A DNA stretch of 64,000 nucleotides from Octopus vulgaris (GCA_951406725.2 OX597816.1:67332001-67396000), one strand, 5' to 3'; shown: positions 3,701 through 63,440, counted from the stretch's first letter. The notes: generated by a model not told the origin, from the letters alone. Made by a program: numbers and translations.

Positions 3701-6700
3701 GTTAAATGGTTCTACAAACTCGTGCATTTACGTTTGTTTGACCCTTCAGCATTCAGATTTCTTTTTCAAATTTATTGCTTATTTATCCACATTGTTTTGA
3801 ATTAATTATGCATTATTTCATAGCTTCAAGATTTCAATGATGCGATTGTTTATTTTTAGAATGACATTGCAGGGTAGGTGTGAGAGGTTTAACATAAAAC
3901 AGGTAGAATATTTGGGCCAGATTAAATGCTAAAGGGTTAAGTATTGGATTGTCTGGAAAGTTCATGCCGATTTTTAAAGGAAAGAGAAACGTCAATAAAT
4001 ACTTGCCATTACATTTTTAATCAACCAAATATGAACCATTTTGTTGCATAATGCGTCTCCATCTTTCCTTTAACTTGAAAATACCCTCTTCCCAGAATTG
4101 AGGTGGTTTCATGGCAAAGATTTCATCAAGGTATCTTTTTACGTCATTCAAGGAATTGAAATTTTTACCATTAAGACTATTCTGCAGAGACCTGAATAAG
4201 TAGAAATCCGAAGGAGCAATATCTGGTGAATATGGAGGGAGGGTAACACATCCCAGTTGAGCTGCAGCAATTTTTGTCTGGTTCCCAAAGCATCAAGTGC
4301 TGAAAATGAACTTTCTTATCATCCATTTTAAAGGGTTACAGAATTAACACAGGTTATAGGAACATAAACGTTATTCCACGAAAAGATAGCTTAAACAGTG
4401 CTCTAAACGGAGGTGTAGTCAAATCCTATTTTATGGACTCAACCATATTCTAAAATAAGTCGAATGGTGAGCTACTATAAATCGGCATGAACTTTCCTGA
4501 CAACCCAATAGATACATGTACATGGTCAGTGTTTTATGTAACCTGTTACAATTCATAGCATAAACATTACATATGCGCATGTTGAATTGTAAGCAATTAA
4601 CTATCATAAATAACATTTACATGAATATTAACTTTCAACATTTTAATATGCTTGTTTTATTTTATTTTATTTATATTTATATTTTAGGATGATGAAAATT
4701 CATTCTGTAGCCTTCCAGATCAGAATGGCTGTGATGATGGTTCTGTTGACCACTTTGCAGAAATGTTGGAGACAGAATTTCTTAAAGGAGTTGATGCTGA
4801 CAGTGAAACCAATAAAGTACAAGATGCTGTGATGCTACCAAATGACAATTCTTGCCATCTTTTGCAATCTCCTCAGAATGAGGATCATTTACAGGTTAAT
4901 CCTTATCAAATAAATGAAAATGGTATCAATACTACCACAATTGTCTGTGATAAAAATAGTGAAAGTGGTAATGATCATCTCAATGCTGAACAAGGTTGCA
5001 TGAAACAAGATTTAGAAGATGGAAGTTCTAAACAGTTTGAAAGTGTTCCTGGTACAGCAATCCGTACAGACGTTATCCAGATAAATGACACAGAACTTTT
5101 ACCACGTTCTGGTAATATAAATTCTGGAGATGTCTCTACACCTGATTCTGTAACATATCACAATGTTGCTTATAATTACACTGATACAATGCCAAGTCAT
5201 GGTGAAACATTGTTAAATGATAAAATCAATACAAATCCACCAGCACCTAGAAAATGTTCAAATTTGTTTGATGAAAACTTAAAGAAATCTAAAGAAAACA
5301 AGGAGCAGGATATAATTAGTGAATCTTTGGTTGAATATCAGAATGATAATGATAATAAATGTGATATCAAGTGCGGCTATAATTCTGATTGCAGCAAAGC
5401 AAATTCAAACAAAATTTTGGAAAACCATATAGCAAAAGATCTTAGTCAAACTGCTGATAATTCAAAGTTTGATTCTGTTACATTCCATGAAGATGCTTAT
5501 AATAACACTGAAACTCTTTCAGTTTGTGGTGTAACATCTTTAGAAAATGAAATTGATGCAAATCTATCAGTTCAAAGGAAATGTTCAGATTCGTCTGAAG
5601 GTACCTTAAAGATATCTAAAGATAGGAAGAAGAGGAATATCAATAAAGAATCTTTGGCTAAAAATCAGAATGACAATGATAGAAACAAATCTAATACCAT
5701 GTGTGGTTATAACTCTGATTATAACAAAATGAATTCAAAAGAGGTTTTAGGAAACCATATTGAAGAAAATTCCAGTGAAACTGTTGATATTAAGATTGGA
5801 TCACTGTCTGCTAAGATTCCTGCAATAACAAAAGATTTATCTGAAGCAGACTTGAGGTTAACTATTTCTGAAACATTTCAGCTAACTCAACCTCCACATC
5901 ACCAAAATGACATCATTAATTATCATCATTCACAGAATAACTCCCAAACCTTAGATACTGAAAATTTTAAAGATGAAAACCTAGCAGTTAAAAATATTTT
6001 GGATGATAAAAGCCTTCTTCATGAATTTTCTTTGTCTAAAGATGATAAATCTTCAAATCTTTCCTTGTTATTTAACAAATCAGACAGTAAATTAAACAAT
6101 TCAGAAACTCACTTTAACAATTCAGAGATTAAAGTCAACAATTTAGAAACTAAAGTTAATAATTCAGAAACTAGATTCAGCAATTCAGAAACTAAATTCA
6201 ACAATTCAGAAACTAGATTCAGCAATTCAGAAACTAAATTCAACAATTCAGAAACTAAATTCATTGATTCAGAAACTCAATTTAACGATCCAAAAACAAA
6301 ATTTAACAATCCAGAAACTAAATTTAATGATTCAAAAACTATATTTAACAATCCAGAAACTAAATCTAACAATCCAGAAACTAAATTTAACAATCCAGAA
6401 ACTAAATTTAACAATCCAGAAACTAAATTTAACAATCCAGAAACTAATTTTAACAATCCAGAAACTAAATTTCACAATTCAGAAACTAAATTTCACAATT
6501 CAGAAACTAAATTTCACAATTCAGAAACTAAATTTAACAATCCAGAAACTAAATTTAACAATCCAGAAACTAAATTTAACAACCCAGAAACTAAATTTAA
6601 TGATTCAGAAATTAAATTTAACAATTCTAAGAAAACAAATATCATATCCGCATCAGTCTCTCTTCCTAAAATATCTGAAATAGTTATTGCTAATAATGAA

Positions 6701-9700
6701 ATGGAAGATCTAAATGATAGAACTAGTTTGGTATCCAATGAACCAGCAGCATTGAAACTCCAAGAGAAAGTTTGTACTGAGATTAACAATGGAAATACTT
6801 CCAGTGAAGAATTTAATGATTTTAGTGATGATTCTTTAGATTTGGATTACAACACATCTAAGAAAGTGGGCTTTCAAAGAAATTCAGTAGAATATGTAGC
6901 TGATGGTGAGATAAAGGAACGTCACCTGATTAAAATTGAACATTCATATGCATTAGAAACTATGAACGATGAAGATAGCTTGATATTTTCTGATTCACTC
7001 TCTGAGCAAGAAATAGATTCAAGTTTAGCTAAATGTTATACAACAAAACCTAAGCCTACTACCTTTATAAATGACTTGTTTGGTATTTGTAGTTCAGACT
7101 CTGAAAGTGAGAAGCAATTTTCAAATAGTGATATTCCTTTAAAATCTGTAAATAATAGTGATAGAATAGAAACCAGTACAAACTCTGATGACCCAAATTC
7201 CCAAACCTTTCCAGTGAAATTAAAGGAATTACAGTCTGAAGATATTCCTTTAAAATCTGTAAATAATAGTGATAGGATAGAAAGCAATAAAAATTCTGAT
7301 GACCCAAATTCCCAAATCTTTCCAGTGAAATTAAAGGAATTACAGTCTGAAGAGAAGACAATGCCTGAAGATAAAAATCTGCTGATCCGATGTGACTCTT
7401 TTAATACATCTCTAGATGTTGATGATAATAATGAAGATTCACAGCTGTCGAATTTCAGCATTAAGACAAATATGGAGCATAAAAAAGTTACTGCAACTGG
7501 AACAGCTTGTGGAGACATCAAAGAAAATAGTAAACCTTCCCAGAAGGTTGAAGAAGCTCCATGTATCAGAACTAATGTTGTAAATAATAAACCATCATCT
7601 CATATTAAATGTTCTGTAACCTTTCTCCAACATTCTACTTCATTATTGGATTCTATAAAATCTAAGAGCAAAGCAGTAGAGAATGGGAAAAACAATTCTG
7701 TGAGTTCAAAACAATTAGGATTTGAACAGGTCGTTGATTTCTGTCACAATACTGAGAAATCCCAGTCAGAAAACATAGCACATGACACATCATATCCAAA
7801 GATCTTTGCTCGAGAATCTAATGAAACTACTTCTAGTAATGATAGTCTGACATTAATTGAAGAGTTCATTTTAGTTGCTCCTCTGATAACTCCATTCCCA
7901 GATACTTTAGAATTTATCAAAAAACATTCTTCACACACAGATACGGTAAACAGTAAGTATGCTGTTGATCAAATCTCAACAAAGAGTTCTGTAGAGAACC
8001 CTTTGCCTCCACATCTGTCCATCAACTTTAGGAAAAGACCAACTGAAAATTCCATTCTACCAAATATCAGTAGTGGAAACAAAAACCATGTTAATAGTCA
8101 AGACAGCAAATACCCTGATGAACCGGTGCTAAAGAGCAGCAAGCAGACCCCTGTGAAAGTATTCAATCTTTCCCATAATTTATCATCTGACCAAAATGTC
8201 CCCAGCAAAATCTCAGCTACATTTGCTCACAGAAGGAGATTATTAAATAAATCCAGGTAAGAAATAAAAATTTTGTTGTCTCTTCTTCTGTATTGATGAA
8301 AGTTAGGATGTTGTTGTTGTTTTAGCCAAGCTTGATAAAAAAACAGGCCACTTAATGTATCTAGGACTGCATTATATAAGATCTTCTATTCTTTTGTTCT
8401 TTTTAAAGTGTTAGTCATTAGAGGGAGATTTGATATTCATTGGCTTGTTGAAAAAAAAATAACATCTATTGTTTGGTGATAGGAATAAAATTGTTTAGAG
8501 TCTTAATGAGTTTTAATCATTAGCACACCAAACAAAATACTTAAAGGCATTTCTTCCAGCTTTACATTCTGAGGTTGGCTTTACCTTTTATTCTTTCAGG
8601 GTTGATAAAATAGATGCCAGTTAAGCACTAAGGGTCGATGTGATCAGCTTCCATTTTCCCTCTAAATTGCTGACCTTGAGTGAAAAACTAGAAAGAATTA
8701 TTATTTTAATATCCTTATGAGTACAGAGTCATGACTAACATGCAAAATTTGTAGACAACATGATTTACACGAGATAGAATAATCACAGCCAGAAACACCA
8801 ATTCAATGAGTAATCACTTTGATAGGGTTTCTGTGTATCGTAGGTCTTCTCATGCAGAAGTCTCTGGAGATACACCATAATGACAACAGCTCAGTTTATA
8901 GAATCTACTGAATATATATTTCATCATCATCATCATCATCATCATTATGACCATGAAGACAACGACTGTTACCTGTTTATCTCTAACAATGCTAGTGCAT
9001 AAAAGCACCCACCACACTCTGTAAGGTGGTTGGCATTAGGAAGGGCATCCAGCTGCAGGAACCATGCCAAATTAGACTGGAGTCTGGTGCAGCTCCCCAG
9101 TTCAGGTCAAACCATCCAATAAATGCAGGCATGGGTGTTAAATGATGGTGGTCGTGGAGGTGGTGGTGGTGGTGATGATGATGATGATATACTCTGTGTT
9201 CAATTTGTATGTGTATTGTGTGTCTGTGTGTGTCGACTTGTGTGTAAGTGATTGTGTAATGTTTTCTACGGGGTGGGCCAAAAGTCACGAAAAGGTATGA
9301 GATGTTAATAAATTTTTTAAATTATTTTTTTTATTTAGATGTGATTTTTTTCTCACCTAGCTTACATCTATTGTGTGTATGATATTGCAGTATTCAGATG
9401 GCTGCACCAGACACCAATCTGATCTGGCAGAGTTTCTACAGCTGGATGCCCTTTCTAATGCCAACCACTCTGAGAGTGTAAAGCACCCACTACACTCTCG
9501 GAGTAGTTGGTGTTAGGAAGAGCATCCAGCTGTAGAAACTCTGCCAGATCAGATTGGAGTCTGGTGCAGCCATCTGGTTCGCCAGACATCAGTCAAATCG
9601 TCCAACCCATGCTAGCATGGAAATCGGACGTTAAACGATGATGATGATGATGTAAATTTAAAACAGAAAATAAAAAATTAAGAATGACTTTTGGCCCACC

Positions 9701-25435: not shown

Positions 25436-26566
25436 TATGTGTGTGTATATGTTTGTGTCTGTGTTTGTCTCCCCCAACATCGCTTGACAACCAATGGTGG
25501 CGTGTTTACGTCCCATAACTTAGTGGTTCGGCAAAATAGACCGAAAGAATAAGTATTAGGCTTACAAATAATAAGTCCTGGGGTAGATTTGCTTGACTAA
25601 AGGCAGTGCTCCAGCATGGCCGCAGTCAAATGACTGAAACAAGTAAAAGAGTAACATGAACTATTGATTGGCCAGTTGGACCCTACCTCCTCTTTCTGCC
25701 CATAAATCAAACAAAGTTGTTATTTAACTAAATCCCTCCAAATTGTTGAATACTTTAAAATTTTCTTGAAACATAGGCTGTGTGTTTCATTACAAATATT
25801 GTTATGCAATGGTTAAAGTTTGTCTACCACAGCACATTATTTTCAGTAATGATGCTACCTACCTTCTACCAGTTATTGTATTCTTTGTGTGGCATCATTT
25901 CAAAAATAGGCTCTTTTTAATTTTTCTTTATCTATTTCACAGGTGGACAAGTGACTTTACCTCAAGTTATTGAACACGTAGTAGTTAATTCAATCAAAGG
26001 AAAACATGTAGATAAAAAGGTGAGTGATCTTCAGGTTTGCTTCTGGTGTCTTCATTTTTTTTTTTTATGATTTGTTGATTTTTTTTCAAGAGTGCATTCA
26101 TAACTAAGCATGAAACAATTCATGCAAAGAATGCAAAACTATTCATTGAATTTGTTATGAATCTAATCTCCAACATTTCCATTTGTTCAATCACTGGTTA
26201 TTCTTATGATCATGTTCATTGAAGAAACCTTTTATTTAAAACTAGCACTATGACCCAGCGTTGCCAGGTCATAGTGCTAGTGTATGCATATATAGCTGCG
26301 TGCGTGCGCACATACACGCGAGTGCTATCCAAATCTCCAACCAATCACATAAAGCTAGCTGGCATTCAATTGGCGTATCAAGTTTCGGGCACTTTGATTG
26401 GGTTTTGGATAGAAAATTCACAAAAATGTCACTTCTATTGATTTTTTAATGGCTTTGCAGGGTGACTGGCGAAATGTAAAGATGTGCACGACAACCCTTG
26501 GACGGTTTTGAATGACCATAGAAAGTGCGAGCTCTCTGACTGAAAAATTGTGGATTTGTATAAAGG

Positions 26567-26597
<31 letters not shown>

Positions 26598-28183
26598 TAT
26601 TTTGCCGTTTATATATATAGAGATTGTAGTGACACTTGTCTCAATTCACCATGCACTGAATTGCTACAAACAATGGAGACATAGTTGTGTGATAAAGAAA
26701 CTTGCTTCCCAACCACATGGTTCCTTATTTAGTCCCACTGCATTACGACTTTGGCAAATGTCCTTTATTATAGCTCCAGGCTGACCAAAGCTTTGTGAGT
26801 AGATTTGGTAGATAGAAATTGAAAGTGTGTTGTGTATATATACACAGGTGCCTTTTTTGAGGAATCTGTGTTGATGACATATAAAAGGCACCCATGCTGG
26901 TGTTAGGAAGGGCATCCAGCTATAGAAACCAAGCCAAAATAGAGAACTGGTGTCTGGTACAGCTCTCTGGTTTACCACCTTCAATCAAATTGTCTAATCC
27001 ATGCCAGCATGGAAAACGGCTGTTAAATGATAATGGTATGCATGCGTGTGTGTTTGTGTGTGTGAGAGTTGCTATTCTCTTTTGATAATTGCAAGCAAGT
27101 GTTACCATCATACAAATGGTGTCCTTTGTTTCTAATCTTCTGTGTAAACATGTCCAGCCACAAGGAAATATTACCTTAGTTGAAAACAGGTAAGGGTCGG
27201 TGACAGGAAGGGCATCCAGTCATAAAAAAATCTACCTCAACAAATTCCATCTAACCCATGCTGAGCATGGAAAAGTCACTGTTAAGATGATGATGATGGC
27301 AGTAGTTATGAAGAAGAATGTGGCTGAGCTTGACAATATCAGCAACGCTGTTGAAGAACTTAAGAAAAGATTGGGGAAGGCAAGGGGAATTTTGCTAGTT
27401 GACATCAAAAAAGAAATTAAAGAATATATAAAGAATAGTTTTCCTGGAGTTGTGAACTTAATGATTTATGTAATTTTCATATTTCAAAGAAGGATTCCTC
27501 TGTTGGCTATATGAATAGAAATGAAGATATATTGGGAAAAACTTCAACCAGTGCTAAATTATTTCATAACAAAGCAATTACATAAACAAACAACATTCTC
27601 TGGATGCAAAAGGTGGCTTGGTGTTTGTAATTTTATTCCCAAAAAGGTCGACAGTATGTGGATGTATTCCTAGAATATATGTTTATAATAAAGATAACAC
27701 TATATGTCATGTCAGACCAAACTCCAGTTGCTGTCATGTTAACTCACAATAAGGCTAAGTGTCCATATCCAACTGTCAATTACTACAATAGCAGCTAAAA
27801 TAATGCGTGTATCATGAATGGGAGTGCAGAGTATATAAACAATTGAAAAGTATTCTTAATAACCTGTTTCAAGAAAAGAACATTTTATTTTTTAAAACTT
27901 TGGCTACAAGATACCATATTTGGCTAGGTTTGAGAAGAGAGCCACTAAGTCAATGTTAATAGTTATTAATGATGTAGGAGTATTCTTTTATTTGTTTCAG
28001 TCATTTGACGGTGGCCATGCTGGAACACCGCCTTTAGTCGAGCAAATCAACCCCAGGACTTATTCTTTGTAATCCTAGTACTTATTCTGTCAGTCTCTCT
28101 TGCCAAACTGCTAGGTGACGAGGACGTAAACACACCACCATTGGTTGTCAAGCAATGTTGCGGGGACAAACACAGACACACAA

Positions 28184-37499: not shown

Positions 37500-38719
37500 T
37501 CATCATCATCATCATCATCGTTTAACGTCCGTTCTCCATGCTAGCATGGGTTGGACGGTTCGACCGGGGATCTGGGAAGCCAGAAGGCTGCACCAGACTC
37601 CGGTCTTATCTGGCAATGTTTCTACAGCTATATATATATATAAATTAGAAAAAATAAAACATCTTTTATCAATTCAAAATGAACAATTAAATTACACCAT
37701 CTAGAATATGTAATTTTCTAGATGGTGTAATTTAATTGTTCATTTTGAATTGATAAAAGGTGTTTTTTTTCTAATTTATAATAAGAGATATTATATTTTG
37801 TGAAATTTGATTTAGTATTTCTAAATTGAATTTTCCCCTGTAAGTTAGGAATAATATTCCCTCAAATAATTATAATATATATATATATATATTCATGATG
37901 AACTGCTTTCAGTTTCTGTCTACCAAATCCACTTACAAGGCTTTGCCAGTCAAGGGTTATTGTGGAAGATACTTGTCCAAGGTGCCATGCAGTTAAATTG
38001 AACTCAAGACGATATGATTGGGAAGCAAATATTCTTAATCATATGACTATGCCTAGTCATTTATTGATATGGAAAAATAGATCCAAAGACAATACTGATT
38101 GCACTTGTGACTTAAGTTCATTTGATACAGTGATTGTTGTTTAATCTCAGGTGAGACCTATAATCAAAGCTCTAAGTAATCCAAGTTCATCAACTGTACG
38201 TGTCATTCTTAATAAGGTTGATAAAATACTGCACAAAATTCCACCTATAATATAAAATTATTATGAGAGAAAAAGGAAGTCTTTATATGGTCACTTGACT
38301 TGCTGGAGATAACAGCTAAAATCTTCAGCTCATAGTTTGATGCATTAAAAAAGGAACAGCAACATTGAATAATGTAAATTGGATGGCTATGGCTGGGATA
38401 TCTTCTATCATTAGTCTACAAATTAGGATTGACTTGGGGCTAAACAGCCTCAGTTAACATTTAATTGATATGCATTATTGCTGCAGGTATGGCTGTGTGG
38501 TTAAGAAACAGTCTTTGCAACCATGTGGTTTGGGGTCAGTCCAGTTGTGTGGTTTTGAATCTGCTCCCTTATGTGAGTGTCTGCTACTGTAGCCTCAGGT
38601 TAATCTATATGCTTTGTGACTGAATTTGGTTGATGGAAACTGTGGAGAAGACTGTTGTGTATACACATATGTCAGTGTGTATGTTTGTATTATATGATCT
38701 CCTTGCCTTAACTCAGATA

Positions 38720-39363
38720 GCTCTCCGGCTATCTATCTGAGGCTTTATATAGCTTTGGTGTGGCCTCACCTGGAATTTGCATCACTAGCCTGGAAACCCT
38801 ATCTTGCCCAGGATATTAATCGTCTGGAAACTGTTCAGCAAATTGCAACCAAGAGAATACCCTCCATCAGGCATTTGCCATATTCTGAATACCTTACTTC
38901 GCCAGGCATGCATAGATGGAAACTCCCACATCTGGCAACTGACTTGGCAGACACCCATAAAATTATTAACCATCTTACTAACAATAACTCTGAGCACCTT
39001 TTCAAACTCCACCTGTCTAACACCTGTGGACATGTTTAAAAAGTCAGAAAACAGCACAGCTCCCATGACTTTCGGAAACATTTTTTCACACTAAGAGTTG
39101 CTGAAGCATGGAACAAACTGCTGGCATCAGTTGTTAGTTGTTGGAGCACTGCATCCTTCAAAACTTCCATGCTTCCTGAGATTCGCCAACACTACACCTG
39201 ATTTTCTCCCCTCCATACACACGCAAGCATGTATCTGACTCATACACTGTTCACTTTCCAGACATTTGTACATTACTGCTTAGGCTTTCTATGCACTTTT
39301 GGCAAGTTGTGGTGCACCTGAGCACTGTATAATATAATTTCATTATTATTATTATTATTATTA
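38720..39363 (+). mobile_element. CR1-clade LINE 3' end with (ATT)n tail
   Basis: LVWPHLEFASLAWKPY...LETVQQIATKRI...RKHFFTLRVAEAWNKL. Confidence 0.88.
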
Positions 39364-40162
39364 TATATTTCTTAATGTGCGTCATAGTCATGCATGAGGT
39401 CTCCTTCATTTCCAATATTCTGTGATAATATGTCTAGCTGTGGGGGAAATATTACCTTGCTAAAGAACATGTGAGAGGTGGCAACAAAAAGGGCATCTGG
39501 TCATAGAAAATCTTACTCAGCAAATTCCAACACATGCAAGCATGGAAAAGTGGATACTGATAATGATAGTGATGAATATGTGTGTTTGTGTGTGTGTTTG
39601 TGTTTATGTTGGTCAACCCCACTGCTTGACAACTGGCATTGATTTGTCTATGTCCCCATAACTTTCAGGTTTAGCAAAAGAGACTGATAGAGTAAATACA
39701 AGACTGGAATCAATTTGTTCAACTAAACCCTTCAAGATGGTGCCTCAGTATGGCTGATTTCAAATGACTGAAATGAGTAAAAAAAATCACGAAAGCAAAT
39801 GAAACCTCAGATATGAATGAAAAAAGACTAAATTTAATAAAATATGATCAGCTTTGGGGCAATAAAATAAAGTACTAGTGATGAACTGAGGTTTATTTAC
39901 ATTCTTAGATGTGAATGGTATATTTCTAACATAGGTACAAGCTCCCAGATTTGGTGCAAGGGAAGAGATAAACCAACCTCCACACTTGACTGGTGCTTTA
40001 TTTTATTGACTCTTGAAGGATGAAAACTAAAGTGGGATTTGAACCTGAGGACACCTTTGCCTTTCCTTTTTACTGGTCTTGATAATAACAAAGTACCAGT
40101 TAATTACTTGACTGATACTTTATTTTATTGATCCCAGAAGGATGAAAGCAAAGTTTATAAAA

Positions 40163-40660
40163 AATAATAACGAAATTATTGTATACAGTGCTCAGGTGCA
40201 CCACAACTTGTCAGAAAGTGCATATAAAGCCTAAGCAGTAATGTACAAATGTCTGGAAAGCGAACAGTGTATGAGTCAGATACATGCTTGTGTGTGTATG
40301 GAGGGGAGAAAATCAGGTGTAGTGTTGGCGAATCTCAGAAAGCATGAAAGTTTTGAAGGATGCAGTGCTCCGACAACTAACAACTGATGCCGGCAGTTTG
40401 TTCCATGCTTCAGCAACTCTCAGCGTGAAAAAATGTTTCCTAAAGCCATGGGAGCTGTGCTGTTTTCTGACTTTGTAAATATGTCCACGGGTGTTAGACG
40501 GGTGGAGTTTGAAAAGGTGCTCAGAGTTATTGTTTGTAAGATGGTTAATAATTTTATGGGTGTCTGCCAAGTCAGCTGCCAGACGTGGGAGTTTCAATGT
40601 GTCCATGCCCAGGGAAGTAAGGCGTTCAGAATATGGCAAATGCCTGATGGAGGGTATTCT
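40163..40660 (-). mobile_element. CR1-clade LINE 3' end, inverted relative to 38720-39363
   Basis: RIPSIRHLPYSERL...TRGH...RKHFFTLRVAEAWNKLPASVV; a third degraded copy at ~40970-41250(+). Confidence 0.88.
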
Positions 40661-41310
40661 TTTTTTTTTTTTTTTTTTAGCAGGATTTGAATTCAGAATG
40701 GAAGCAATACTGTAAAGCATTATTCCAGATGCTGTAACGATTTAGTCAGAAATTTGGTGGGAAGAGCTAGTCAGTCATATCGACCAGTGCTTGGCTCGTA
40801 CTTATTTTATTGACCTCGAAAGGATGAAAAAAAGATAACTTTGGTGGAATTTGAACTCAGAATGTGTAGCTGGAAGAATTGCTGCAGCGCATTTTGTTGG
40901 CATGCTAAAAATCCTGCCATCTGAGCTTTTATTTACTTTTTTTTTGTCAGAAATAATGATTGTTTCTATGACTTTCAGAGATATATTTTCACACTCAGAA
41001 TCTTTGAAACATGGAATAAACTACCTGCATTAGTAGTTGGCTGTCAAGACATTGCATCCTTCAAAATCTTCATGCTTCCTATAATTCTCTAACAGTATAC
41101 CTGATGCCCTCCCTCCTTTTTTCTTTAACGATTCATTCACTGTTCACTTCCTGTGCATTATGCTATGTACTGTTAATGTACTTTTGGCTTCTTTTTCTGA
41201 TTAATTGTAGTTCACCCGAGTACTGTGTACAATAATTTCATTGTATATTATAATTGCAATCTCAAGGAACACAAAAGAAAAAAAACTTGGTAAAGGGAGA
41301 TAACCACTGA

Positions 41311-41430: not shown

Positions 41431-41509
41431 ATGGGATCTGGTCCAGTAGAAAGACTTCGTCAACTTGAAATGATTGAGCGTGATATAGCTACAGCAATTC
41501 ATAGCTCAG
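41431..41509 (+). CDS. MED11: MED11 exon 1
   Basis: ATG at 41431; ERLRQLEMIERDI; donor G|gtttgt. Confidence 0.93.
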
Positions 41510-44500
41510 GTTTGTAATTCCTTATAATGGTCACATTTTGCCTTGTTCGTCGTTTATTGTTTGGAACCAAATTCTTCCAGCCTTGGCGGAGTTCTTGAAT
41601 ATTTCTGTCGAGGAAGAATGCATTGTCTTGTGTAATTTCGCTTTTTAAAGACAGTAAGGTATCGTTTAATGGAGATTTGGTTACTGTTTAGGTGGCCAAG
41701 ACATCTCCTAAGGCTTAAGGCTTGTTTCGTTGTTTTGTCATGTGTTTGTCAAATTCATGTTTGTTTATTTAGCTTTAATATCAAGACTTTCGCGGGCGAA
41801 ATGCTTAGCAGTATTTCGTCTGTTCTTAGTTCAAATTCCTCCGAGGTTGACTTTGCCTTTCATCCTTTCGGGGTCGAAAAATTAAGTACCAGTTGCGTAC
41901 CTCCCCCACCAAATTTCGGCCCTTGTGCCCAGAGTAGAAAAGACTATTAAAACTTTCGCAAAAATCATTGTTAGAAACTGGTTTATTTATTAATTTATTT
42001 ATATTTTGGAATTAATATTTTTCAAATATAATTCTAAAATTTTTCACTCAAGCGTAATAGCTTTAAAAACTTATGAGAAAATTTGGGAAAAAATTTGCGC
42101 AAACTAATTACCTGTTTCTATTGTATTCCATTTCGCCCATTAGCAATTCCGTGGGTATTTTCAAAATTTGGTTTTCAGTAATATTTTTACCATTTCTACT
42201 TCTGTGACGTACAGTAACAAAAACTTTACATGTCAAAGGTGTTAAAAGTAATTAAATGGTAAATAATGAAACCGCCGTTGACCATTAAGTTATTTACATA
42301 GAATTTCAATTTTGAAGATATTAGAGGAATCAGTTTTATTTTGGTTACATTTTGCTAAGCATTTTAGAGGAAAGAGAAACGAGCAATTGTGATGTTTTTC
42401 TCTGAAAGTAATTAACGGCTTCGAATGGAAACTGCTGGAGAACTTAAATCAGCCTGCAACTAAATGAACTGAGGATAATGGAAATAAGTTGTGTAGTCAC
42501 AAGTTATTTTTAATTAAGCAAGCAGGTAGTCGGTCAAACAACAAAGTGCGCCCGGCAAATCTATGTTTTTGTGGTTATGTCATAACTGCACTTAACTGAA
42601 AATCATACTGCACATTCTGATATGCAATAAAATTTCGTAGGAGAGGCTGTGTGGTAAGTAGCGTGCTTACCAACCACATAGTTCTGAGTTCAGTCCCACT
42701 ACATGGCACCTTGGGCAAGTGTCTTCTACAATAGCCTCAGGCCGACCAAAGCTTTGTGAGTGGATTTGGTAGACGGAAACTGAAAGAAGCCTGTTGTATA
42801 CATATATATATATATGTGTGTGTGTATCTGTATTTGTCCCCCCAACATCACTTGACAACTGATACTGGTGTATTTATGTCTCCGTAACTTAGCGGTTCAG
42901 TAAAAGAGACCAATAGAACAAGTACTGGGGTCAATTTGCTTGACTAAGGCGGTGCCCCAGCATGGCTGCAGTCAAATGACTGAAACAAGTAAAAGAATAA
43001 ACGAATTGGTTGCCGTGTAATGATAGTCTGAACATATTGCACTCTCCCCACAGTTCAGTCTTTGTATGACTTAGTTTAATCTTACCTTAACCCTATTTGA
43101 ATTAAACTTATGATTGAAATCATTCCAACTTCGACTGTCTTGTTTTTTCCTTATGTGCAGTATGCATAGGATAACGTTGTAGCTTTTCTGAGACAATGAA
43201 GTGTGGGATCTGGTCATTATATCTAGCAAAAGAAGCCCTGAATAATATTTATAAACTCTGGTGATAGTCTCAGTGGAAGCCAGCAAGGTGGACAAGGTCA
43301 AGGAACCATAGTTGCACCTTATCTATTTGTTGAAATAAATGTCTGTCTAAAATCAAAACAAGATACCTGCAGTGATATGAACTCAAGACCTAATTGGTAC
43401 TCTGAAACCTTATTCACTTGATTATTTTACCCCAACAACTAAAACTACAAAATAACCTACTAATCTTGTTGAACCTTAATCCATGAAGTGGGGAGAATAC
43501 AACAGTTTGCAATTAGCTGTTTATAATCTCTATATATAAACGGCAAAATGTCTGTGTGTGTGTCCTTTATACAAATCCACAATTTTTCAGTTAGAGGGCT
43601 TGCACTTTCTATGGTCATTCAAAACCATTCAAGGGTGGTCGTGCACATCTTTACATTTCCCCAGTCAACCTGCAAAGCCATTAAAAAATCAACAGAAGTG
43701 ACTTTTTTGTGAATTTTCTATCCAAAACCCAATCAAAATGCCCGAAACTTGATACGCCAATTGAATGCCAGCTAGCTGTATGTGATTGGTTGGAGATTTG
43801 GACAGTATTCGCGTGTATGCGCAAGCACGCAGCTGTGTATGCATGCATTAGCACTATGACTCGGCGTTACCGGGTCATAGTGCTTGTGAATGGACTTGAT
43901 AGACAGAAATTGAAAGAAGCCCATCATGTGCGTATGTGTGAGAGAGAGGGAGTATGTTTGTGTCTTGTTCTGATTGTTGTAAATGAATGTCATTCATTTC
44001 CAATATTCTGCAAAACAAGGAGAAATATTAATTGTTTGGAAACAGTTAGCGACAGGGAGGGAATCCAGCCACAGAATATCTACTTCAATAATCTCCATCC
44101 AACCCAGGCAACCATAGTAAAGTGGTTTGAATGAATATGAAGATAAATTAAGCATAAGATTCTGGGAACTAAAAATCTTCAGAAAATATTTTTCATATAC
44201 GTATATATAAATACAAGCACTATGACCCGGTAACGCCGAGTTATAGTGCTTGTATTTATATATACGTATATGAAAAATATTTTCTGAAGATTTTTAGTTC
44301 CCAGAATCTTATGCTTAATTTATCTCCATATTCATTCAAACCACTTTACTATGGTTGCCTGGGTTGGATGGAGATTATTGAAGTAGATATTCTGTGGCTG
44401 GATTCCCTCCCTGTCGCTAACTGTTTCCAAACAATTAATATTTCTCCTTGTTTTGCAGAATATTGGAAATGAATGACATTCATTTACAACAATCAGAACA

Positions 44501-45930
44501 AGACACAAACATACTCCCTCTCTCTCACACATACGCACATGATGGGCTTCTTTCAATTTCTGTCTATCAAGTCCATTCACAAGTCTTTGGTTGGTTTGGG
44601 GCTATAGTAGAAGACACTTGCCCAATGCGCTATGCAGTGGGATTGAATCTAAAACTATGTTGGGAAGCAAACTTCTTAGCCATGCCTATGGCTGCTTTTT
44701 ATTCAGCCAATTTCTGGGGAAGGTGGGGATGCTTGTAACCTTTGTAAGCTCTTTGAGACTAATGACATGAATGTAGCATGCTGACAATTAACAGGGAGGA
44801 ACATCTGGAGTGATTGCTTTGTTAGCGAGATAGTTATTGTTCTTTAGCACCTTATCAGATCTAACTGAGCAGACTAACAATCAGAGGTATTCCAACTATG
44901 GCCATCCTGAGAGTTGCTACAGACAGCCAGTTTTAAACACTTCTGTATGGTCTGTAATATAAAAAAAAATAGGAGAGGACTGAGACCTGATGGACACTTA
45001 ACCTGCAGGCTAAATTTATCATTGTATCACTGACTGTATCGCTATGTATGACTGGTGTAATTGTCACAAGCCATTTATCTATTCCTGATTTATTTACGGA
45101 GCACCAAATTACAAAACAGAATCCAGCCAAAGGCTTTCTCTGGCCCTACAAATACTCAGTATAGGAGCTTACTCTTAGATATGTGCTTCTGTAGTTATCT
45201 CTTGGAATATAGCATGGTAGTATTTCTTCCTAGTACAATGCCAAACTGCATTTCATCACTAATACTCTTCCTGATCAATTGCAAAATAATTCTTTCTATA
45301 ACTTTCACGACCTGGTCCAACAATTTGGTCTGCTTTGCAGATTTGTTGACCACACACCCATGCTTGCATGTGCATGCATGCACACACACACACACACACA
45401 CACGGGTGTGTGCTCTCAGATGCTATTTCTATATATGTCTAGCTAATAATTTGTGGATATTTTTTGGCGCTTGTGTATGTGTGATGATATTTTCATTTGA
45501 TGCTGTGTAATAATCCATACTTCTCTACTGTTTTTACTTGCATTTAATTAGTTTTAGCTTACTGTAGCCTTTATTATGTCATGTTTTAATTCTTTTTCTA
45601 ATCCTTCTCTTCCCTTTCTTCTTCTTATCTTTGGCCTTATTCTACCTCATACACCCATACTCATGATTTCCATTGCTTTATTTACTGCCAATTCCACTTT
45701 GTTTTTACGCATAATAATACCATTTCGGACGATTGGTCCTTCAGCCCTCTTTGTCTATCTTTCTCATAACCTTTTCTCTTATTATACTTCTATTTTATTT
45801 ACCCCAACTTTCAGTATTTATCCTTCCGTATTTAAAATATGCTATTATTTTAGAAACTTATTTAAAACCAGTCTAAATGAGTCACCTCTTTATACTTTTT
45901 CCAGATAATTCTTTTAAACTAATTAGTAGG

Positions 45931-45972
<42 letters not shown>

Positions 45973-48900
45973 TCAATATTTTTCAGTCGTTTGATAAATT
46001 AAACTGCTGTAACCAAAATATCTGGCTGATTGTCACATATGTATTTCTTTATTGCCCACAAGGGGCTAAACATAGAGAGGACAAACAAGGACAGACAAAG
46101 AGATTAAGTTGATTACATTGACCCAGTGCGAAACTGGTACTTTATTTATTTGACCCCGAAAGGATGAAAGGCAAAGTCGACCTCGGCGGAATATGAACTC
46201 AGAACGTAATGACAGGTGAAATACCACTAAGCATTTCTCTCGGCGCACTAACATGTCTGCTAGCTCGCCGCCTTATATGATTGTCACACATCTATCTATA
46301 TATATATAATGGACTCTCCTGTCAAAGACAATGTATGAGCGTTAAGCTTTTGCTGAATGACATACACAAGTGATTTGTTTATGGTGATCAAATGTTTGTG
46401 CCACACCTTAGCTCACTCTCTCTATCAAATTGATGTTGTCTGAACAGGTGCCATGTGTCAGGTGTCAAAGTGATTGCAGAGCAATGTGGGATGAAGTGTT
46501 TTGTTCAAGGACACAACACCTCACTTGGTCTGGAAACTGAAATCATGATTGCTAGATTGTGTGTGCAGTGTCCTAACCACTAAGCCATGCACCCTCACAT
46601 TTGTATCATTGTAGCTGTGATACCTGTGCTGGTGGCACATAAAAAGCACCATCCGAACATGGCCGATGCCAGCACCGCCTTGACTGGCTTCTGTGCCGGT
46701 GGTACGTAAAAAGCACCAACCGATCGCGGCCGTTGCCAACCTCCCCTGGCATGTAAAAAGCACCCACTACACTCACGGAGTGGTTGGCGTTAGGAAGGGC
46801 ATCCAGCTGTAGAAACACTGCCAGATCAGACTGGAGCTTGGTGCAGCCTCCTGGCTTCCCAGACCCCGGTTGAATCGTCCAACCCGTGCTAGCACGGAAA
46901 ACAGATGTTAAACGATGATGATGATGTCGTTAAGAAGCTTGCCTCTAAATCACATGGTCCTGGGTTCAATCCCACTAACATGGATCTTTGAGCATTTGTC
47001 TTCTACAATAGCCCCTGGCCAACTGATGGAAACATAAGCATGTTTGTATGAGTTTGTGTCTCTTTGTCTTGCATCATGTGATAGTTGTTAATGGGTGTCA
47101 CTATCATACAAGCTGTGTTTTTCATTTCTAGTCTTCTGTTTGGAATTAGATGAGGGTTGGCTACAGAAAGTGCATCTGGCTGTAGAAAGTTTACTTCAAC
47201 AAATACCATTGAGCCCATGCAAGCATGGACAAGAAGACTTTAACTCTATAATGATGATCATTATCATCATTATTTTACATTCGTTTTTTTTTCATGTGTA
47301 TGGGTTGTATGACAGTGTCTTGTTACTTGTAATTTCCTTCGATACATACAAAAAAAACAAACCCTTCAATCTTTGCTGTGTATGGTATATGTAACATTAT
47401 ACAGAAATAACTACCTTAATTTTACTTTTTACTTTCTTTATCATTAATTACTCTTGAAATTCTCTCTAATTTAAGGTCAAGCTCTGCAAGAACTATCCAA
47501 AGATAAACCAAGTATGAAGCAAGTAGAAAGTCACACTACCAGCTTCATTAAAACACTTGAAAGTGTTGAGATTGGACTTACAAAGCAAATCAACTATCTC
47601 ACTCAGGTGTCTACTGGTAAGTGAGATTTTACATTGACACAGGCATATTTTTATTACTAATTTCGGTGACATTCTCCTCATCATCATCATGATCATAAAT
47701 AGCAACTAAAATCCTAATCTTAACTCTGCTAGTCTAAATACTTTTAGCCTTTTCTCTTGATTATACATGCATACGTTTTATACCTCACAAATAGCTTAAA
47801 CAGACACGCATAAAAACATACAACCATTTTCTTTTAATGCTGTATTCAAACAGTTCACTGCTTATAGTTTATTCATCATCATCACTTAAGGTCTGTTGTC
47901 CATGCTGGCATAGGTTGGACGGTTTGACCAGGGCTGGTAAGCTGAGGGGCTGCACTGAATTCCAGTCTGATTTGGCATGGTTTCTACAGCTGGATGCCCT
48001 TCTTATTAGAACTTTCATATAAGAAGAGTGATAGGATGACTAGGATTAGTGTGGTCGAAACTTGTAAATAAGAAAAACTATTTTACATATTCATAAATTT
48101 TTGCCTCTTGCCTTTATTTTTTTGTTCTTTCTGATTTCAAGGCATTTTGTGTATATCAACATCAGTTTTGTATTCAATTTCCTCTCTTAGCGTTCAGGTT
48201 TTTGTGCCAACCAGTGAAGTTGTCTCCCTTGCATAAATTGGTTGCACAATTTGATGAATCAGTTACTGAACTCCTCTCCTACATGCTTAGTGAATGAGTG
48301 CTGTAAGGTGATAGTGTAGTGGCTTCCTGAAGTGGAATAAGCGTACAATGGAAGACCTGGAAAGAGGTGCTGAGCACAGTTTTAGGAATACTGAGTTTCA
48401 AAGACATGATCTAAACAATTAAAGAAGCTCTGAGTTGCAGAGCCATCCAGCAAGTGACAACACCATAGAAAAATTAAAACCATGAAGATGATGAAGGTAA
48501 AATAACATTGCATATCCAACACATCTTGATGAATTTATCCATAGAAAGTTTTGGATCATTAAGAATGTTTGCGTGTGTGTACAAGTTGCATGCCTCTTAG
48601 TGTTGAGTATGATTCTTTATAACATAGCTGCCCATACGTTTCATCATCATCGTTTAACGTCCGCTTTCCATGCTAGCATGGGTTGGACGATTTGACTGAG
48701 GACTGGCGAACCTGATGGCTGCGCCAAGCTCTGATCTGATCTGGCAGAGTTTCTACAGCTGGATGCTCTTCTTAACGCCAACCACTCCGAGAGTGTAGTG
48801 GGTGCTTTTGCGTGCCACTGGTATGAGGGCCAGTCTATCGGTACTGGCAACGACCTCGTTCTATGACAATACCAGACTGAACCATTTGAAACATATTTTA

Positions 48901-51900: not shown

Positions 51901-53454
51901 GGTTTCATGGCATTGAGTGAACAAGCAACGAACCTCATTACTGAGCCAGGTGGAGCTGGTTTAAAAATATTTCAATTTTGTTGCTAATAAATTACTTTAC
52001 CTGTTTCAGTCAACCCAGTTCAGGCTATTTTTATCACTCCTTTGTATTGAATTAGGTTATTCTGTAATGCAATGCACAGAATGTCTCTCCCACACAGTTA
52101 CAATACCTAATCATTGAGTGGCTATAGACTGTATACAACCTGGCTTGTGTGCACGAGTGATCTTGCTTACATTCCAACTGGTGATAATCAAACTGATCAA
52201 ATCTGTAGTTTTTTAGAACTTAATCTGGGAAAGGTGACAATATTCATGGCCTTCGCATGTTCTCTCAGACTGGTCCACCCTGAACATGTGTAGGGAAAAA
52301 TATGGTTTGGGAAGCCAGAAGGCTGCACCAGGCTCCAGTCTAAATTTGGCAATGTTTCTACAGCTGGATGCCCTTCCTAACGCCAAAGAACATGTGTAGG
52401 GAAAAATATGGTTTGACAGATTGCTATAGAGTGAATTTCACTTATAGTACTTTAGGTGGTACCTGTTAACTGGGTGGCAGACAAGCATAGTAGTTTTGGC
52501 TACAAAGTTTTTTTTACAGCTAAACCATTTAAAAAAAAAAAAAAAAAAAAATCCATCAATCTATCTTTTTTGTTTACTATTCCTGGGAGAGTTATGAAGG
52601 TAGGGTTCTCAAACATTTCCTCCATAGTTCTTTCAGAAGCAACTGTCAGACTTTCTGGGGGTGACTGAGATTATGGATATTATCCAACTATTTCATTCTT
52701 GGTCTACCCCTAGGTTTCTTGCTTGTTGGCTCAGCTTGAAGACTCCATCTTGCAATGCCTGCCTGCGACATTCTAACATTGCATGTCTGTAGCACAAGAG
52801 CTATGACCTCTTAATGTGAAGAAACAACTTGAACTGGAGGGACTCCCTGAATTCTGAGAAACACATCATCATCATCATCGTTTAACGTCCACTTCCCATG
52901 CTGGCATGGGTTGGACGATTTTGACTGAGGGCTGGTGAACCAGATGGCTGCACCAGGCTCCAATCTTGATTTGGCAGAGTTTCTACAGCTGGATGCTCTT
53001 CCTAATGCCAACCACTCCAAGAGTGTAGTGGGTGCTTTTTACGTGCCACTGGCATGGAAGCCAGTTGGCTGCTCTGCTGTTAAGTAATGTTATTCCGGAA
53101 ATCCTTCAGAGAAACACTGTTTTAGCCACTTTTATCCACAATCATACTTTTTTTCCTTATTAGATTGAATTAACCTTTTTTTTTCAATGTAGCTCTGTGC
53201 CTCTTTTTGCTACTCTGTTTAAATGCCTGTTAACTTTGTACTTATTTATTTACATATTGCTTGCAGGTCAGCCTCATGAAGGTTCTTGTTATGCAGCACA
53301 GAAAGATCTCCTGATGGCCATGCATAGAGTTGAACATGTCAAAAGCAGACTTAATGAACTTGAAAAAATTCACAATGAACATTTACATGGTTACCTTGCA
53401 TCTGCTCCACAAGGCTCTGGCATGCGCAGGCCATTTCAATCATCACAGATTTAA
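41431..53454 (+). CDS. MED11: Mediator of RNA polymerase II transcription subunit 11, complete, 3 exons, 135 aa
   Basis: join(41431..41509,47476..47616,53267..53454). MGSGPVERLRQLEMIERDIA...ELSKDK...QINYLTQVSTGQPHEGSCY...MAMHRVEHVK matches the MED11 hallmark YLTQV.TGQPHEGS.Y. Confidence 0.97.
43527..43886 (+). mobile_element. Non-autonomous Helitron (copy C)
   Basis: A|TCTCTATATATAAACGG... body like B and D; ends hairpin + CTTG (variant of CTAG). Confidence 0.85.
43883..44583. repeat. Near-perfect 701-bp palindrome (arms ~348 bp, 5-nt loop)
   Basis: Positions pair with sum 88466; identical peptides appear on both strands in the ORF track (43709..44134+ and 44332..44580-). Confidence 0.97.
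45190..45345 (-). mobile_element. RTE RT fragment
   Basis: KLLDQVVKVIERIILQLIRKSISDEMQFG..GR.T. Confidence 0.7.
47476..47616 (+). CDS. MED11: MED11 exon 2
   Basis: Acceptor aatttaag; GQALQELSKDKP...QINYLTQVST; donor G|gtaagt. Confidence 0.95.
53267..53454 (+). CDS. MED11: MED11 exon 3
   Basis: Acceptor ttgcag; GQPHEGSCYAAQKD...QSSQI then TAA. Confidence 0.95.

Positions 53455-57341: not shown

Positions 57342-63440
<6,099 letters not shown>

Follow-up and report, generated by a model that had tools for sequence, protein, structure and literature searches.

The palindrome and its setting in MED11 intron 1

We analysed a window of 64,000 nucleotides from Octopus vulgaris (GCA_951406725.2 OX597816.1:67332001-67396000), and all positions below are counted from its first letter. 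The exons of MED11 are placed as follows:

41431..41509, + strand: MED11 exon 1 (coding part), with a GT donor and a weak Pfam Med11 match (E=0.13, profile positions 2-20)
47476..47616, + strand: MED11 exon 2, with splice sites and a match to Pfam PF10280 (E=3.1e-10)
53267..53454, + strand: likely MED11 exon 3, with an AG acceptor in phase and the motif QPHEGS

Exon 3 gave no Pfam match and was placed by the QPHEGS motif, which we take to be that of MED11. By its splice sites, intron 1 extends over 41510-47475. In it lies a 701-base palindrome (43883-44583), whose left edge is at the hairpin that terminates an old, non-autonomous Helitron. The location of the palindrome in MED11 intron 1, as given in a preliminary description of this DNA, is therefore borne out by the splice sites and by the PF10280 match of exon 2. 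A coding function of the region was ruled out, since none of its three long frames has a Pfam match.

A repeat search placed the arms of the palindrome at 43883-44230 and 44236-44583 (348 nt each, 99% complementary, with a gap of 5 nt), and BLAST matched one arm to the other with E=0.0. The same search recovered the hairpin and its inverted copy, 43850-43887 and 44213-44250 (38 nt, 97% alike). The parts are the following:

43850..43887, + strand: hairpin H, with its stem at 43850-43884 and its loop in GTT orientation, reaching the element end; DNA fold of -15.4 kcal/mol
43883..43887, + strand: outer junction, a 5-nt microhomology (CTTGT) common to the reverse complement of 44579-44583
43888..44212, - strand: derived arm, 325 nt of downstream flank in inverted orientation, opening with a truncated SINE piece
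44213..44253, + strand: second hairpin H2, an inverted H with loop AAC, which rejoins the original right arm; fold of -13.6 kcal/mol
44254..44583, + strand: original downstream flank in normal orientation, as given by the repeat search, the arm comparison and the continuity of the SINE
44541..44683, - strand: SINE-like repeat containing the distal ACAAG microhomology site, aligned with 5 other copies in the window

Along the locus, the Helitron body is followed by H, the inverted flank, inverted H and the flank. H2 again terminates in CTTG|T (44249-44253), and the switch window there is 44240-44250. The gain from the event is 366 nt, and its removal leaves body, hairpin and flank. The repeat at 44541-44683, which we take to be a SINE, is unbroken across 44583 and truncated at 43883 in the alignment of the window copies. 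The right arm thus keeps the repeat intact and the left arm has lost part of it, which marks the left one as derived. A MITE or a foldback transposon was ruled out as the source of the arms, which cut a SINE and lack a target duplication.

The arms differ at 44140/44326, 44224/44242 and 44227/44239; these, with the loop 44231-44235, are the complete list. The assembly thus contains the fold-back that the preliminary description had reported, with the 5-nt CTTGT/ACAAG microhomology at its outer junction and with one outer arm difference, at the 44140/44326 stated there, plus two near the apex. The inverted flank is also present, but its size, put at about 330 bp, is corrected to 325 nt (43888-44212). 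Within the MED11 intron, a 350-bp perfect stem of this kind is predicted to be likely unstable and could give rise to double-stranded RNA in the pre-mRNA.

An old Helitron at the start of the palindrome

The element to the left of the palindrome belongs to a family with further members in the window:

43527..43886, + strand: non-autonomous Helitron copy, 360 bp, with 5' TC after A and 3' CTTG before T
about 26241-26624, - strand: full sister copy (alignment), with end CTAG|T
about 57462-57825, + strand: full sister copy (alignment), with end CTAG|T
2289-2465, - strand: diverged 5' fragment of the same family, about 80% alike, lacking the 3' half

The A|TC boundary of the first copy falls at 43526|43527, and all four aligned copies start with A-TCTCTATAT. 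At the 3' end, CTRR precedes T: both other full copies end in CTAG|T, and the copy at 43527-43886 has the variant CTTG|T. The 3' terminal hairpin folds in the three full copies (-10 to -17.6 kcal/mol), and the hairpin pattern has 4 matches in the window and 0 in 100 shuffles. The flanks of the full copies are mutually unrelated and show no target-site duplication. Judged by these ends (A|TC start, hairpin, family CTAG|T end), which are those that define such elements in the description of Helraiser (PMC4778049), the element is a non-autonomous Helitron, and they uphold its earlier naming as such.

The family is old, because its full copies diverge by about 9% in pairwise comparison and carry 16, 16 and 15 private changes each in 348 columns; the element at 43527-43886 has 16 private substitutions in 348 columns, or 4.6%. 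It is also very large by contig depth: in the four sequencing runs that we compared with the locus, the summed depth of contigs over the Helitron body exceeds that of the unique flank by about four orders of magnitude, a depth that is no copy number. The letters before 43527 are loose in 30-48 contigs per run in these four runs, as dispersed insertions of the family would have them. Pattern scans for family copies in metagenome contigs gave 0 matches. In all four runs, contig joints lead from 43667/43676 to 43526-43531, that is, from element position 140-150 back to its start; such joints are head-to-tail repeats of the Helitron 5' part elsewhere in the genome.

The hairpin arms of the family (43847-43886 and its sisters) include the terminal CTAG, at both stem ends. 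The loop reads AAC in the copy at 26241-26281 (- strand) and its reverse complement, GTT, in 43850-43887 and 57785-57826. The AAC loop is present there with no duplication of the flank. The two loops would reflect either loop inversion or two subfamilies.

Reconstruction of a probable template switch

A model with one switch and one return rebuilds the palindrome locus with 2 mismatches in 2,201 nt. It has 72 equivalent solutions, in which the copying strand leaves at 43882-43887, lands at 44578-44583, ends copying back at 43850-43861 and returns at 43874-43885. The product consists of the left part of the ancestral allele, a reverse-complement fragment and the right part, with no deletion and no untemplated bases at the junctions. 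Junction A has 11 nt of hairpin-arm homology and inverts the loop; junction B has the 5-nt microhomology. Among 200,000 random opposite-strand junctions in the window, homology of at least 5 nt has P=0.007 (0.7%) and homology of at least 11 nt has P=0.0001. Nothing is present three times except the hairpin arm, which measures at most 14 nt and lies within the junction ambiguity.

The palindrome is probably an inverted duplication of 366 nt at an old Helitron's end, likely made by a single template switch and return, with the hairpin as a passive substrate. A polymerase would stall at the 35-nt hairpin, and the nascent 3' end, which matches one hairpin arm, would cross to the opposite strand and anneal with the other arm there. 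Copying would then run about 366 nt backwards, through loop, arm and flank. At the hairpin base, CTTGT/ACAAG would bring the strand back to the template it had left. The same two switches in mirror order would give an equally good fit, and a transposase would be unnecessary. The hairpin seeded the event, since the apex lies within it and the hairpins of the three full Helitron copies make up only 0.2% of the window.

Points 1 (43882-43887) and 4 (43874-43885) of the switch overlap, so the orders 3-1-4-2 and 3-4-1-2 both fit, and the spacer is inverted. By our derivation these orders would be their own mirror images, with microhomology-first and hairpin-first inseparable from sequence. We favour the hairpin-first order, since stalling at the hairpin would explain both departure and return within a few bases of its base. 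The two-step switch of the preliminary description, using hairpin arms and a 5-nt microhomology, therefore holds in that it rebuilds the locus with 2 mismatches, but the order it gave, with the microhomology used for leaving and the hairpin for returning, has a mirror reading of equal standing. Two other routes to the structure were ruled out. In an inverted local re-insertion of the Helitron, the inverted piece would not begin inside the hairpin and lack the 5' TC, as it does here, and a leftward nascent strand that simply folded back on itself would give a middle loop of the opposite orientation.

Two of the 366 duplicated nt (44242 and 44326), or 0.5%, differ between the copies, against 4.6% for the private divergence of the element, and therefore the palindrome was not made at the insertion of this Helitron copy. 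The duplication would be more than 10 times younger than that insertion, unless arm-to-arm conversion has reset the divergence. Of the three differences once counted in support of a very recent event, the one at 44227/44239 corresponds to a mismatch of the hairpin's own and predates the duplication; the other two post-date it, and the event is young on their count.

Comparison with known rearrangements

The class to which the palindrome probably belongs, template-switch mutation, is known, and the present case is one locus, seen in the assembly only. As far as the consulted sections of the source papers go, it resembles four-point switches of the order 3-1-4-2, in which one nearby reverse-complement fragment is copied between two switches, with two inverted repeats, an inverted spacer and the need for an inter-strand switch. 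This order accounts for 1% of 794 human-chimp events in the consulted part of Loytynoja and Goldman 2017 (PMC5453318). The copied fragments of the great-ape gold set have a median of 12 and a maximum of 128, according to the part of Walker et al. 2021 that we used (PMC7954356). Against these figures, the fragment of 366 nt in the palindrome is longer than any, which counts against a reading by template switching; the locus further departs from the ape set, as those excerpts describe it, in its transposon-hairpin seed and in the equal fit of 3-4-1-2. The single allele would thus be a clean, base-resolved case of a known class of template switch, of unusual length and with a transposon hairpin as its seed.

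For DUP-TRP/INV-DUP rearrangements we relied on a 2024 paper whose authors we take to be Grochowski et al. In its consulted sections (PMC11293582), these rearrangements have one junction at pre-existing inverted repeats and the other with 1-9 bp of microhomology, as the palindrome does. They differ from it in scale, with repeats of at least 0.9 kb and segments of tens to hundreds of kb in the same excerpt (PMC11293582), whereas the arms at the palindrome are 11-15 nt. The triplicated inverted core is absent from the palindrome, where no more than 14 nt are present three times.

Small inverted triplications (SIT) share with the palindrome a sub-kb inverted fragment, short reverse-complement junctions (mode 6 bp in SIT) and two template switches, in the portion of Lei et al. 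2026 at hand (PMC13334657). That portion gives SIT sizes with medians of 148/160/148 bp, flanking direct duplications with a median of 148 bp and a range down to 7 bp, and two spacers of about 30 bp (PMC13334657). Unlike the SIT of this excerpt, the palindrome has a direct duplicate of at most 14 nt and a single, hairpin-sized spacer. The ODIRA model, in the sections available to us (PMC4689423), begins with a switch from leading to lagging strand at a short interrupted inverted repeat, which is a plausible first step here too. In contrast with ODIRA as presented there, the palindrome neither needs nor shows a ligated closed fork, an extrachromosomal intermediate, an origin or a full triplication. 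The likeness to inverted-repeat-primed amplification drawn in the preliminary description accordingly fails for ODIRA proper, as no segment is triplicated and the second junction is a microhomology located at the first. In the titles and abstract openings of the open-access literature, we found no paper on such an event at a Helitron hairpin.

Independent runs and the status of the duplicated allele

Twenty-four runs were listed, 20 of them with part of the window, and the best shares 0.74 of the words. We compared the contigs of four runs (X1, X2, X3 and X18) with 43250-44275. X2 and X18, from two studies, each contain one 255-nt contig that equals 43988-44241 without difference and has one unmatched letter on the side of 44242. 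In a simulation with k=31, a last match at 44241 is predicted for the unduplicated allele; for the duplicated allele, heterozygotes included, the unitig would break at 44139 (allele of the window) or at 44226 (allele without the later changes). The X2 and X18 contigs thus suggest that an unduplicated allele exists. They extend just 29 letters beyond the join of flank and hairpin, less than the 31 letters of the bridging rule, and bubbles and short side paths can be lost when contigs are built. Their stop at 44242 requires a second sequence with the terminal 31-mer, which may be a paralog or the outer junction.

In X1, the left flank is matched exactly over 302 nt, and a 761-nt contig joins the flank 43988-44215 to 533 nt that are unlike the compared stretch and replace the Helitron hairpin. 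This is a third arrangement at the same element end, by insertion, deletion or rearrangement. An empty site or a simple inversion was ruled out for this contig, since the match would then stop at 44213 or 44217 and not at 44215. In X3, of which about 80% was read, neither the unique flank nor the left flank is covered.

Contigs of the Helitron family swamped the hairpin region, and short junction contigs fell outside the pieces listed. Among those listed from the four runs, no piece crosses either new junction (43883-43887 or 44242-44253). Contig depth at 44265-44275 is nil in all four runs, a hole in contigs that proves nothing. Fragments spanning the apex of a palindrome can drop out of short-read libraries. 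The depth ratios of contigs are 0.94 for arm to left flank in X2, 1.49 for outer arm to left flank in X1 and 0.68 for the long flank contig to left flank in X1, which are weak hints and not copy numbers, and their directions disagree.

Since two of the four runs fit the unduplicated allele, one has a third arrangement and one is uninformative, the duplicated allele is either rare or private, or an artefact. The independent confirmation that the preliminary description had looked to is not provided by these runs, in which both junctions are absent among the pieces listed and X2 and X18 fit the unduplicated allele. We consider it highly probable that the allele is real and rare or private. An artefact of library or assembly, in which a chimeric fold-back read (from amplification or hairpin self-priming) entered the consensus and the two arm differences are polishing errors, is unlikely. 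This account draws on the same absence from the four runs and on the place of the post-event differences: 44242 and 44326 both fall in the right half, other individuals have the sequence of the left arm, and errors left over from assembly could account for the differences. Strand-displacement amplification is known to produce inverted chimeras with short microhomology. A literature search on assembly artefacts of the fold-back kind brought up two unrelated papers. Yet an artefact would need two chimeric switches within 370 nt, with the direction restored and no sequence lost, in a window that is without any N and has its repeats resolved. The share of 0.74 of words in the best run also means that the runs may come from individuals other than the assembled one. 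Finally, such events do happen in this genome, as older fold-backs in the window, with arms of 88-91%, indicate:

9395-9576: older fold-back unrelated to the Helitron family, 182 nt, 88%, with a spacer of about 10 nt, from the 3' part of a SINE-like repeat
37639-37780: older palindrome unrelated to the Helitron family, 142 nt, AT-rich, 91%, with no second copy among the window self-matches of at least 60 nt

Possible consequences for Helitron capture

Capture of flanking DNA by Helitrons is usually explained by bypass of the element end. If recurrent, errors of replication that turn the flank around and restore the terminator would be a further route beside end bypass, and only then would the palindrome matter more. 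The composite 43527-44252 has an intact 5' TC, the internal inverted flank and a second hairpin with a CTTG|T end, and it still sits in the A|T site of the insertion. With its intact 5' TC and downstream hairpin and CTTG|T end, it resembles the products of 3' transduction by end bypass in Helraiser, as set out in the consulted part of the paper (PMC4778049). In that part, the first end is read through in about 11.7% of events when intact, and changes to the loop impaired function (PMC4778049). Because Helraiser reads through its end and its mutants used CTTG ends, the composite could in principle move by end read-through; because loop changes impaired Helraiser, the flipped loop may terminate transposition poorly. 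Two differences should be kept in mind, again within the sections of the Helraiser paper that we used (PMC4778049): bypass captures the flank in direct orientation during transposition, whereas the flank of the palindrome is inverted in place, and the Helraiser hairpin of 19 bp lies 11 nt upstream of the end, whereas the arms of the window family run to or through CTAG.

The preliminary description saw in the locus a mechanism for inverted capture by Helitrons. A mechanism is more than this one locus supports: neither of the two other full copies within the window has an inverted flank, the two older fold-backs of the window are unrelated to the family, and no moved copy of the composite was seen in the 64-kb window or in the long contigs over the unique flank, of which each informative run has one among the pieces listed. 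Nor is the flank duplication necessary as a source of the flipped loop, given that the copy at 26.4 kb has an AAC loop without it, so the flipped loop occurs in the family without capture. A broader proposal would make the long terminal hairpins of this abundant family recurrent seeds of template switches, which flip the loop and rebuild the 3' end past an inverted flank; capture in inverted orientation would then be independent of transposase, a flip of this kind would be the origin of the AAC loop at 26.4 kb, and composites that have moved would be present at other sites of the genome. We hold this to be improbable. The hairpin is most likely a passive substrate.

Less likely origins of the palindrome

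An active role of the transposase is very unlikely. RepHel of an active family would nick CTTG|T, the free 3' end would be joined or primed at an opposite-strand CTTG|T 330 nt downstream, and repair would be resolved at the hairpin arms. The exact element end indeed falls in the leave window 43882-43887, and CTTG|T lies on its own strand at both junction partners; in the consulted part of the Helraiser study (PMC4778049), mutants without the hairpin or the right end made CTTG-3' ends beside T. However, the base of the hairpin is the element end, where a passive switch would be expected as well; the distal site reads G|T instead of the A|T of a target; and this Helitron copy is old (16/348 private changes). 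The inverted piece moreover starts within the hairpin and not at a 5' TC, which excludes a re-inserted element.

Break repair with templated insertion (polymerase theta end joining or MMBIR) after cleavage of the extruded hairpin, in place of a switch at a live fork, has a very slim chance: the 5-nt microhomology and the base change at 44242 within the switch window suit error-prone repair synthesis, and the sections at hand (PMC11293582) attribute DUP-TRP/INV-DUP to break-induced replication together with MMBIR or NHEJ, but the junctions have neither deletion nor untemplated bases, and the product is identical to that of a template switch and inseparable from it by sequence.

Other repeats in the window

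The window holds a further inverted repeat, 38851-39353 and 40160-40663 (504 nt, 93% alike, 807 nt apart), one end of which adjoins a long T run; a target duplication is not evident. Comparison of the window with itself also gave tandem arrays at 5143-5789, 6069-6644 and 7130-7353, with units of about 327, 63-105 and 111 nt, respectively.
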